Source: Vicinamibacteria bacterium
Lineage (GTDB): Bacteria > Acidobacteriota > Vicinamibacteria > Vicinamibacterales > CAVVIG01
Reading direction: 5' to 3'
Length of the DNA: 60,725 nt
Assembly: GCA_041485905.1 (NCBI GenBank)
Contig: JBGPKK010000005.1
Location: forward strand, 1-60,725
Part shown: piece after piece, positions 13,157 through 16,147 of the stretch
Layout: every line of letters begins with the position of its first letter
How positions within the stretch are numbered: position 1 is the stretch's first letter
Made by a program: the position numbers and the translations under genes
The notes under the pieces: generated by a model
Database searches by the model: none
What the model was told of the DNA's origin: nothing
Seen by the model: only the letters and a program-made list of their open reading frames with translations

Positions 13157-14071
13157 ATGGACCCACAGCGCACTCTACGTCGTCAGATTTCCTGCGTCGG
13201 AATCGGTCTTCACTCCGGCAACAAAGTCACGCTGTCATTGAAGCCTGCGCCGTCCGATTTCGGCATCAGGTTTCGCCGTACCGACATCGGCCATCACGAA
13301 GTGCCCGCGACCGTCCACAACCTGGCCGGTATTCAGCTGGCGACGGGGCTGGCGCGCGAGAAAGTGTCGGTCGAGACGGTCGAGCACCTCCTGGCGGCGC
13401 TCGTCAGCACGGGCGTCGACAACGTGATCGTCGAGCTCAACTCGCCGGAAGTGCCGATCATGGACGGCAGCGCGGCGCCGTTCATCTACCTCATTCACGA
13501 GGCGGGCGTGAAACGGCTGCAGACGCCGCGCAAGTACCTGAAGATCATCCGATCGATTTCCATCTCGCGCGGCGACAAGCGCATCGCGCTGTACCCGTCG
13601 GATCACTTCAAGGTCACCTACAGCGTCAGCTACGATCATCCGCTGCTGCGTCATCAGTCCCGCACGCTGCGCATTACTGAAGACTCGTTCGTCGAGGACA
13701 TCGCGCCGGCGAGAACGTTCACGTTCCTGAAGGACGTCGAGATGCTGCGGCAGAACGGCCTCGCGCTCGGCGGCTCGCTCGAGAACGCCATCGTGCTCGG
13801 CGAGACCGGCGTCCTCAACAACCCGCTGCGGTTCGAAGACGAGTTCGTCCGCCACAAGATCCTCGACGCGATTGGCGACCTCGCCCTCGTCGGCTATCCC
13901 GTCATCGGCCACCTCGTCGCTCACCGCGCCGGCCACGCGCTCCACACGGAGTTCGCCGCGAAGATTCTCGAAGAGACGCACGCGTGGCGGCTCGTCGAGG
14001 CCCCGTTCGAACCGGCTTCGCTGCCCGTGGGCTTGCCGGCAAAGCACGCGGTGCCGCGCCTCGCTCACTAG
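13157..14071 (+). CDS. lpxC: UDP-3-O-acyl-GlcNAc deacetylase
   Basis: MDPQRTLRRQISCVGIGLHSGNKV N-terminus, HKILDAIGDLAL, HRAGHALH. Start at ATG 13157. Confidence 0.95.
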   Translation: MDPQRTLRRQISCVGIGLHSGNKVTLSLKPAPSDFGIRFRRTDIGHHEVPATVHNLAGIQLATGLAREKVSVETVEHLLAALVSTGVDNVIVELNSPEVPIMDGSAAPFIYLIHEAGVKRLQTPRKYLKIIRSISISRGDKRIALYPSDHFKVTYSVSYDHPLLRHQSRTLRITEDSFVEDIAPARTFTFLKDVEMLRQNGLALGGSLENAIVLGETGVLNNPLRFEDEFVRHKILDAIGDLALVGYPVIGHLVAHRAGHALHTEFAAKILEETHAWRLVEAPFEPASLPVGLPAKHAVPRLAH

Positions 14072-14196: not shown

Positions 14197-14724
14197 ATGC
14201 GACGTGTACTCTTGTTGCTCGTGGTGGCGGCACTGGCGGTGCCGGCGGCGGTCCTGGCCCAGGCCAAACCTGATTTCTCGGGCACCTGGACGCTCGACAC
14301 AGCGAAAAGCGATCCTCCGCCGCAGCGTGGTGGTGGCGGCGGAGCGCCGGGCGGTGGCGGAGCCCCGGGCGGCGGCGCTGCTCGCGCCGGTGGTGGAGGC
14401 GGCGGGCGCGGGGGCGGCCCTGTGACGATCATGATGATGCCGACCGGTCTGATGATCGGCGACGTCACCTACAAGCTTGATGGCTCGGAGCAGACCGTTC
14501 AGCTGCAGGGCCGCGGAGGTCCCCAGCCGGCCAAGGTCAAGGCACGGTGGGACGACAGCGGCAAGAAGCTTCTCATCGAGACGGTTCGAGAGGCCAACGG
14601 CAACACGATCACGACGAAGGAAGAGCGCTCGCTGAGCGCCGACGGCAAAGAGATGACCGTCGAGACGACCAACGTCACCCCGAACGGTGAGCAGAAGCGG
14701 AAGACGGTCTTCACCAAAGGCTAG
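14197..14724 (+). CDS. secreted hypothetical protein with Gly-rich tract
   Basis: Signal peptide MRRVLLLLVVAALAVPAAVLAQA. GAGGAGGA precedes ATG 14197. About 35 aa of G/A/P low complexity. No family recognised. Confidence 0.65.
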   Translation: MRRVLLLLVVAALAVPAAVLAQAKPDFSGTWTLDTAKSDPPPQRGGGGGAPGGGGAPGGGAARAGGGGGGRGGGPVTIMMMPTGLMIGDVTYKLDGSEQTVQLQGRGGPQPAKVKARWDDSGKKLLIETVREANGNTITTKEERSLSADGKEMTVETTNVTPNGEQKRKTVFTKG

Positions 14725-14785: not shown

Positions 14786-16147
14786 TTATCTGACCCAGAG
14801 ATTCTTGATGGTGGTCATCGAGCCGCAGTGCTCGAACCAGTCGATCCCCTCGCTGACCAGGTCAAATTTCAGCGCGTATCGTCCCGGTTGCTTCGGCGCC
14901 GGAATCTCGATCGGCACGTCGAGCGCGCCTCCCGGGCCGAGCGTCTCGGGCAGCCACGCGCGCGCAAAATCCCGGTCGATCACCGTCCCTGCCTCGTCGC
15001 ACAGCTGCGCGCCGAGGCGCACGAGTCGACGGCCGTAGGTGGCCTGCGCGGGAAACGCGCGGGTGGACAGGTTGTGCACGCGCGTGCGCACGCGCAGCGC
15101 GCGACCCGCGCGGGTCATCAGCGGGACGCCTGGCACCAGCGTCCGCACATCAATGCGCGCCCGTGGCATCGCGCCGGGGATCGCGTTGCCGAGATCGTTG
15201 TCGTCCCAGATTTCGTGCCGGATCGATTCGAGCGGCGGCGATCCCGGCACGAACCGGCGCGAGTATCCGGTTTCCGGATGGTCGGTGATTTCCCAACACA
15301 GCCGATCGACGCCGATGTCGGCCGCCAGCTCGCGTGCGCGGTTCATTTCCTCGTCGCTGTCGTTCCAGACGAAGAGGATGTACCGCCAGTTCAGGAACGG
15401 AAGATCCCGGCCGGCCCGGCGCTTCTCCCCGGCCATCGTCCGGAGCGTCTGGATGGCGAGGTCGAAGCGGCCGCGCTGACGGTATTTGACGTAACTCTCC
15501 GGCGTCGCGCCGTCGATCGAGAACGTCACTTCATCGATGCCCGAGTGCACGAGGCGCCTCGCCTGCGCGTCGGTCAGCGCCAGGCCGTTCGTGCTCGTGT
15601 ACAGGTAGATGTGCGGAAAGCGGGACTTGATGTACTCGCACATCTCGACCGCCCGCTTGTGCAGGAACGCTTCACCGTAGTTGAAGAAATCGATGCGTCC
15701 CAGCGACGGACCGGCTTCGTCGATGACGCGGCGGAACAGGTCGAAGTCGAGCATGCCCGCCTGTCGCGTGCGCGTGATGCCGGTCTCGGGCGCGCAGCAG
15801 GCCTCCGCGCACGAGATATTGCACGCGGCGGTGCATTCGACGTAGAGACGCGACGGCAAGGCGCCGGCATCGACGGACCGGACAACCGGCGCGTCGTCTT
15901 TTTTCAGCGGCAGCTTGAGCGCGCAATCGCCGCAGAATTTCGACCCGCCCGCGTTCAGGTCGGTGCGGAGCGCCGAGATGGTCTGTCCCGTCCAGACGTC
16001 GTTCACCGACGCGGTCCGCATGTCGCCGAGCACACGGTGTCCGTAAGGGTCCGCGCAGCCGCAGACCATCCGGCCGTCGCACAACATGACCAGCGTCGTC
16101 CATGGCCACGAACACTGGAAGCGGGTTGACAGGTAATTCAGCGACAT
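14786..16147 (-). CDS. radical SAM enzyme with N-terminal SPASM/twitch-like Cys domain and C-terminal Ig-like domain
   Basis: Core ECTAACNISCAEACC, FFNYGEAFL, YTSTNG, SIDG. N-terminus C..LVMLCDGRMVCGC..LGDM..SVNDVW..LR..CGDC. C-terminus GRYALKFDLVSEGIDWF. Confidence 0.85.
   Translation of the reverse strand: MSLNYLSTRFQCSWPWTTLVMLCDGRMVCGCADPYGHRVLGDMRTASVNDVWTGQTISALRTDLNAGGSKFCGDCALKLPLKKDDAPVVRSVDAGALPSRLYVECTAACNISCAEACCAPETGITRTRQAGMLDFDLFRRVIDEAGPSLGRIDFFNYGEAFLHKRAVEMCEYIKSRFPHIYLYTSTNGLALTDAQARRLVHSGIDEVTFSIDGATPESYVKYRQRGRFDLAIQTLRTMAGEKRRAGRDLPFLNWRYILFVWNDSDEEMNRARELAADIGVDRLCWEITDHPETGYSRRFVPGSPPLESIRHEIWDDNDLGNAIPGAMPRARIDVRTLVPGVPLMTRAGRALRVRTRVHNLSTRAFPAQATYGRRLVRLGAQLCDEAGTVIDRDFARAWLPETLGPGGALDVPIEIPAPKQPGRYALKFDLVSEGIDWFEHCGSMTTIKNLWVR

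Follow-up and report, generated by a model that had tools for sequence, protein, structure and literature searches.

For radical S-adenosylmethionine (SAM) enzymes, the defining motif given by textbooks and RadicalSAM.org is CX3CX2C, with SPASM/twitch domains placed C-terminally. SPASM/twitch domains were described as C-terminal in reviews (PMC9012708, PMC9477430), the twitch domain as a truncated SPASM domain binding one auxiliary cluster (PMC9012708), auxiliary clusters as proposed electron acceptors in two-electron oxidations (e.g. by BtrN, PqqE and SuiB; PMC9012708), and the motif variants of RadicalSAM.org as confined to the first interval (CXnCX2C; CX4- to CX11-CX2C; PMC9477430). The founding twitch enzyme is BtrN (2-deoxy-scyllo-inosamine dehydrogenase, 4M7T/4M7S), and one uncharacterised family, NF033640 (“N_Twi_rSAM”), is catalogued with a twitch domain before the core. 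We analysed a 60,725-bp stretch (the window) of contig JBGPKK010000005.1 from a Vicinamibacteria bacterium (assembly GCA_041485905.1). A gene at 14786–16147 bp (minus strand; 453 amino acids (aa) plus stop codon in the list of open reading frames) encodes a radical SAM protein with an N-terminal twitch domain, a core with the conserved motif CX3CX4C and a C-terminal immunoglobulin (Ig)-like sandwich; its family breaks both rules.

Homologues were found for the minus-strand frame only, and a 480-aa plus-strand frame overlapping 14786–16147 bp was a shadow frame (GC ~0.65). The locus represents a real, well conserved, uncharacterised iron-sulfur radical SAM enzyme family of soil Acidobacteria. 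Because 80 Vicinamibacterales orthologues were 72–93% identical over their full length, sequence comparison indicated strong purifying selection on the three-domain enzyme. Two sets of sequences were used for residue counts: alignment A1, comprising 53 of 150 listed representatives, each of which spans the N-terminal domain and the core as a minimum (fragments were omitted), and 99 orthologue rows, made up of the query plus 80 loci from Vicinamibacterales and 18 from other families (six duplicate loci were removed). The scan of genome contigs for orthologous loci kept close orthologues only (72–93% identical), and the more distant contexts were taken from a genome search.

The N-terminal domain (residues 12–75; 15923–16114 bp, minus strand) was matched by Pfam SPASM (PF13186) with 30.1 bits (cut-off 21.5) over profile positions 1–66 of 67, and Pfam Radical_SAM (PF04055) matched residues 104–239 with 38.5 bits (cut-off 29.5). 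The SPASM/twitch domain lay before the core and was not a C-terminal extension of it. These features are not a chance result: SPASM was matched in 49/53 and Radical_SAM in 50/53 diverse relatives, and the SPASM-before-core order was seen in 16/17 further relatives scanned singly, the remaining one having no Radical_SAM match. A preliminary description of this DNA, made without database searches, had read the N-terminal segment as a SPASM/twitch module and had placed it ahead of the core; both points were borne out by the Pfam matches and their order, by a match of residues 11–76 to the N_Twi_rSAM model and by a weak alignment with the BtrN twitch domain. A linker (residues 76–99; 15851–15922 bp, minus strand) led from the twitch domain to the first core strand; on the secondary-structure map of the model it was mostly coil with a short strand at residues 79–80, and its columns were poorly conserved in A1. 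A literature search of open-access PMC and bioRxiv found no mention of an N-terminal SPASM or N-terminal twitch domain in a radical SAM protein.

C29, C72 and C75 of this domain were invariant in A1, and C12 was kept in 52/53; among the 99 orthologue rows, C12, C72 and C75 were present in 98, C29 and C31 in 99 and C23 in 90. The full SPASM motif is CX2CX5CX3C plus a further Cys, and these are the second-cluster cysteines. No further conserved Cys was found in A1 between C72-X2-C75 and the core. Since the second-cluster half of the motif was missing, twitch is a better name than SPASM, and a SPASM domain with two auxiliary clusters was rejected. Judged from its sequence, the N-terminal domain is a one-cluster twitch domain before the core. 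It was modelled with a predicted local distance difference test (pLDDT) score of 85–98 and showed a hairpin-plus-helix pattern (residues 14–65). Candidate ligands of the predicted auxiliary [4Fe-4S] cluster were C12, C29 (or C31), C72 and C75; the second ligand may be either C29 or C31, because C29 is invariant family-wide and C31 is not.

The core (residues 100–320; 15188–15850 bp, minus strand) was examined in a whole-chain AlphaFold model (pLDDT 94.1, predicted template modelling score 0.89). Structural comparison of residues ~95–320 with VIA-align gave SuiB (Z 15.3), DesII and NifB (both 15.0), BlsE (14.5), viperin (14.3) and anSME (13.1), indicating that the modelled core has the usual radical SAM fold, with the expected partial TIM barrel. 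In A1, G158, N187 and G213 were invariant, and E159, T186 and G188 were at least 90% conserved. These residues belong to the conserved core motifs YGE (G158, E159; replacing the usual GGE), TNG (186–188) and SIDG (G213), stretches through which other radical SAM enzymes bind SAM.

The cluster loop C105–C118 (15794–15835 bp, minus strand) contained the string CTAACNISCAEACC with five cysteines (C105, C109, C113, C117 and C118), and CX3CX2C was absent from the cluster-loop region. C109 and C113 were found in 53/53 and C118 in 52/53 sequences of A1, C105 in 2/53 and C117 in 5/53. Because only C109, C113 and C118 of the five were conserved family-wide, the conserved motif was CX3CX4C (triad C109-X3-C113-X4-C118). 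In A1 the second Cys was separated from the third by X4 in 38/53, X2 in eight, X3 in four, X5 in one and X6 in one. A single row lacked a Cys at the aligned position; both it and the X6 row hold an internal CPxC and are really canonical, and one X4 row (CNLNCPGCYC) was ambiguous. The orthologue rows were more uniform: C109 and C113 were present in 99/99 and C118 and the X4 interval in 98/99, with C105 in 85/99 and C117 in 86/99. A Cys at position 105/106 covaried with C117 (both in 85 rows, neither in eight, one only in six). By these counts the five-Cys run is a clade feature on top of a family-wide CX3CX4C. The loop had earlier been read as Cx3Cx3Cx3CC with no canonical Cx3Cx2C. The five cysteines are indeed there and the homologue alignment showed no conserved canonical motif that had been overlooked, but C105 and C117 were clade-specific, and Cx3Cx3Cx3CC as a family-wide five-Cys site was rejected. 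C109, C113 and C118 are likely to form the predicted binding site of the SAM-cleaving [4Fe-4S] cluster, and C105 and C117 could serve as a disulfide or as spare ligands beside it. The spacing CX3CX4C (CxxxCxxxxC) was not mentioned in the open-access PMC and bioRxiv literature searched.

The C-terminal domain (residues 326–453; 14789–15172 bp, minus strand) was an Ig-like (NBR1/FW-like) beta-sandwich, seen at residues 330–452 of the whole-chain model and modelled alone with pLDDT 91.0. The best Foldseek match was the NBR1 FW domain 4ole (E 1.5e-5, TM 0.61–0.65) and the best VIA-align match the ILRUN FW domain 6vhi (Z 10.2, root-mean-square deviation (rmsd) 2.7 over 106 residues); close behind and effectively tied were Ig domains of dextranase, CARDB and GH2 proteins (Z 9.8–9.0) and NBR1 4ole (Z 9.0). 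PF16158 (N_BRCA1_IG) was matched below its cut-off of 28, with 17.3 bits for the domain alone and 14.9 bits for the whole protein. Residues 341–446 matched repeats of P0247, an M6-peptidase protein which itself scored 133 bits on PF16158. The preliminary description had proposed an Ig-like sandwich of roughly 150 residues resembling those of glycan-acting enzymes: the fold was confirmed by the structure models, its length came to ~128 rather than 150 residues, and the resemblance held, the glycosidase Ig match being about equal to the FW match. FW domains are known in bacteria and tend to lie near the C-terminus (PMC3357945), and the FW/Ig-like sandwich is a mobile accessory domain. The same genome also encoded the sandwich at the C-terminus of a 389-aa class I SAM methyltransferase (contig C75, L082:1234–2403, minus strand) and at the N-terminus of an 803-aa sulfatase-family protein (contig C11, L120:3155–5566, plus strand).

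Among known families, NF033640 shared the order of N-terminal twitch and core. Residues 11–76 corresponded to positions 4–70 of its 398-position profile, and 33/53 relatives matched the model at E≤1e-5. Our protein scored 25.3 bits against a cut-off of 170, however, and its BLASTP alignment with a true member (25 bits) covered the twitch domain only. Three true members (L121–L123) had canonical CX3CX2C motifs (CNLRCIMC, CNFKCRSC and CNQKCRMC), unlike our CX3CX4C, and, judged by inspecting their sequences alone, no Ig-like C-terminus. In the own genome no protein scored above the cut-off, and true members occurred in 3/301 sampled Acidobacteriota genomes. Thus the N-terminal-twitch order is already catalogued, and our family, with its CX3CX4C motif and Ig-like tail, is separate from NF033640. 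It was fair to call the three-part architecture unusual, as had been done at the outset, though its N-terminal twitch had a precedent in this sister family.

BtrN was the best solved sequence relative (phmmer E 8.9e-6, residues 97–226), and its twitch domain aligned weakly (4.2–4.5 bits) to residues 10–75. C12, C72 and C75 fell on BtrN cysteines at chain positions 169, 232 and 235, and C31 on 187; these four BtrN cysteines are presumably the auxiliary cluster ligands. The fourth BtrN ligand was aligned by HMMER to C31, not to the invariant C29. The auxiliary cluster of BtrN has four Cys ligands (PMC9012708), and this alignment showed a correspondence of the four twitch cysteines with its fully Cys-ligated auxiliary cluster site. 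BtrN differed in having a C-terminal twitch domain, the motif CNRTCWYC (CX3CX2C with an aromatic residue) and no Ig-like domain. In Foldseek the top structure was BlsE (cytosylglucuronate decarboxylase, 7VOB), with E 1.2e-10 and an rmsd of 2.9 across 190 columns (sequence E 2.2e-4), but the core alone aligned, the domain order and Cys motif were different, and our protein scored 21.2 bits on rSAM_BlsE against a cut-off of 400. Both BtrN and BlsE act on sugar-type small molecules.

A paralogue with exchanged ends was observed in genome G010 (L112:148–1788, plus strand), adjoining the radical SAM orthologue. This 546-aa protein had the domain order Ig, core, twitch: our core (residues 103–331) aligned to its residues 187–397 (E 1e-16), our Ig-like domain (327–443) to 48–159 (E 2e-8) and our twitch domain (12–77) to 468–532 (E 4e-4). 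Its motif was the canonical CPLKCIQC, unlike our CX3CX4C. The paralogue is rare: complete or almost complete copies were present in 4/401 Acidobacteriota genomes, with a weaker match in a fifth, and all four also carried the twitch-core-Ig protein. Simple circular permutation was rejected, since the cyclic domain order differs between the two; they are related by domain shuffling, and the Ig-core-twitch form offers a clean case for the study of domain rearrangement.

The evidence on all three domains is best explained by a radical SAM enzyme which probably carries out BtrN-type oxidative chemistry. The cluster held by C109, C113 and C118 would bind SAM and cleave it reductively to a 5′-deoxyadenosyl radical, and this radical would abstract a hydrogen atom from the substrate. 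The N-terminal twitch domain, with its fully ligated auxiliary cluster, is expected to pack against the barrel, where the cluster could take up the substrate radical's electron, so that the substrate would be oxidised by two electrons in all, e.g. by dehydrogenation or cross-linking. The C-terminal sandwich may assist in binding a bulky substrate or a partner. Our best guess at the substrate, a tentative one, is a sugar or a cell-envelope glycan or lipid-linked molecule rather than a peptide, because BtrN and BlsE are the nearest solved relatives and deacetylase, GT1 and lpxC genes occur as neighbours. A distal protein as target is almost equally probable. The substrate is not encoded beside the radical SAM gene.

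Several points weigh against BtrN-type oxidation of such a substrate. The third Cys was preceded by a non-aromatic residue, unlike in BtrN CNRTCWYC, and for this reason SAM binding may differ from that in BtrN. C117 instead of C118 could be the ligand in this clade. The neighbourhoods varied by family, and most neighbours were unrelated housekeeping genes. The best NCBIfam matches of the core were to putative protein maturases, TIGR04317 (86.1 bits) and TIGR04311 (75.6 bits), the FW domain of eukaryotic Nbr1 binds protein cargo (PMC9233695), and the sandwich type of our protein was found on the M6 peptidase P0247 as well.

The last three points would suit a protein-modifying maturase, in which the FW-like sandwich would bring in, for radical modification, a folded protein whose gene lies elsewhere in the genome, as by anSME-type and other SPASM/twitch maturases. 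Both maturase families were matched by 53/53 relatives, but the matches covered the core only and the scores were far below the cut-offs of 380 and 400. The nearest TIGR04317-like proteins had CX3CX2C and a C-terminal multi-Cys SPASM domain, unlike ours, and no TIGR04317 member over the cut-off was found in 151 genomes. Moreover, no linked candidate target was found in any context examined, and the sandwich fitted glycosidase Ig domains as well as FW domains. We regard a maturase of this kind as unlikely, yet as the alternative to be taken most seriously.

That the stretched motif is unable to hold a SAM-cleaving cluster, leaving an inactive pseudo-radical-SAM protein with an iron-sulfur or scaffold role only, appeared very improbable. 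It would account for the missing CX3CX2C and the lack of an aromatic residue before the third Cys, and there was a weak match to the pseudo-SAM family TIGR04347 (28.8 bits, cut-off 525). The three triad cysteines, however, were kept in 52–53 of 53 relatives, the X4 spacing was retained in 38/53 diverse relatives and in 98/99 orthologue rows, and the glycine-rich, TNG and SIDG motifs were conserved. The X2, X3 and X5 spacings among relatives of the same family suggest a tolerant loop, not decay, and ThiC, whose motif is likewise non-canonical, is listed as a functioning enzyme (PMC4389238).

Least probable of all was a maturase of the type acting on ribosomally made, post-translationally modified peptides (RiPPs), with the translationally coupled upstream 88-aa protein as its target: the 88-aa gene ends in a stop codon directly next to the radical SAM ATG, and the pair stood together in 71/80 Vicinamibacterales loci, but the 88-aa gene was also present in 4/5 genomes of the same order in which a query with the radical SAM protein (P0122) found no orthologue, it was near none of the orthologues ~45% identical in other families (0/18 loci), no peptide-recognition (RRE-type) domain was found in a Pfam scan of the radical SAM protein and no RRE/PqqD-like domain was found in it either, so that the RiPP-maturase pairing of a co-located precursor with an RRE domain was lacking.

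Apart from the BtrN-type oxidation favoured above, a wider possibility, which we hold to be doubtful, is that the family represents a large undescribed SPASM/twitch branch in which the auxiliary domain has been relocated to the N-terminal end and the SAM cluster sits in a CX3CX4C loop lacking the aromatic residue; through its FW-type sandwich the enzyme would be directed to an envelope polymer or to a folded protein, for a radical modification of a kind new to science, and C105 and C117 would perhaps be a redox-sensitive pair. The family is in any case a natural test of a stretched cluster loop and of an auxiliary cluster serving from the other end of the chain, and motif mining that requires CX3CX2C would miss it. 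The enzyme may carry out novel chemistry in soil Acidobacteria, which are abundant and have seldom been cultured.

The family is large and mainly from Acidobacteriota. Among 8000 candidates examined, 3432 homologues had E≤0.001; identity was 81–96% across the best 120 of these 3432, and the named ones were Acidobacteriota or Vicinamibacterales. Representatives at 50% identity numbered 17834 at E≤0.001 and 306 at E≤1e-30, and the matches in the ESM Atlas were unnamed radical SAM clusters only, mostly of Acidobacteriota. The gene was single-copy in its own genome. When P0122 was used as query, 64/401 genomes of the phylum matched at E≤1e-20; ~44 of these (G000 included) gave strong, mostly full-length matches, and 23/34 genomes of the same order were among them. 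The distribution is patchy, with a presence/absence polymorphism at one locus within the Vicinamibacterales. Longer fused forms of the protein were not found at E≤1e-20 in a weak search.

Upstream of the radical SAM gene in the window, genes for an extracytoplasmic function (ECF)-type sigma factor, a STAS protein and the 88-aa protein were packed head to tail with it. The 88-aa gene (16148–16414 bp, minus strand; read directly from the sequence) encodes a helical protein matching no Pfam family, and the gap between it and the STAS gene was 4 bases. The sigma/STAS/88-aa unit (16148–17455 bp, minus strand) was tightly packed and had no linked anti-sigma kinase. The convergent gene on the other side was lpxC. 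Among the 80 Vicinamibacterales loci, some of them cut by contig ends, the 88-aa gene was a neighbour in 71, the STAS, sigma and lysA genes in 70 each, tmk in 66, lpxC in 45 and uvrA in 43. The sigma, STAS and 88-aa genes were not found within ~6 kb at any of the 18 loci of other Acidobacteriota families (orthologues 30–59% identical). The four loci that kept the 88-aa gene without a radical SAM orthologue read lpxC, 88-aa gene, STAS, sigma and lysA, with nothing between. Because the sigma/STAS/88-aa genes were kept in genomes without the radical SAM gene and were absent from the 18 distant loci, and because neighbours elsewhere vary, they are a module separate from the enzyme, and their linkage is no evidence of its function.

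Other neighbourhoods were found in other families. The start of the radical SAM gene was overlapped by a polysaccharide deacetylase gene in three genomes of the f44 family, with DUF2851 and PCMT genes also near; an Ig-like domain was looked for in these neighbouring deacetylases and none was found. One f25-family genome had genes for a GT1 glycosyltransferase, a SIS/CBS protein and inositol-1-phosphate synthase as neighbours. In two f49-family genomes an MglA-like small GTPase gene (L102:7318–7908, minus strand; L101:2014–2604, plus strand) abutted the orthologue, with a Roadblock/LC7 gene beside the GTPase gene (L101:1523–2011, plus strand).

A small protein was encoded at 13984–14724 bp (plus strand; likely start near 14197), between lpxC and the radical SAM gene and convergent with the latter. 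Its start resembled a signal peptide and was accompanied by a long run rich in Gly/Pro/Ala; it matched no Pfam family, and a like sequence was found in only 8/80 orthologous loci. No promoter-like sites were found, and the four terminator-like sites (2.1 expected by chance) were not informative. A stretch “EKGSGVV” was repeated within the UvrA translation of the window. Two metagenome-assembled genomes titled Bifidobacterium or Bifidobacteriaceae (L043, CAZOAZ010000036.1; L063, CAZCEL010000007.1) carried a locus of the Vicinamibacterales type in complete synteny (uvrA, lpxC, radical SAM, 88-aa gene, STAS, sigma, lysA and tmk), and the taxon labels of these records are probably wrong.

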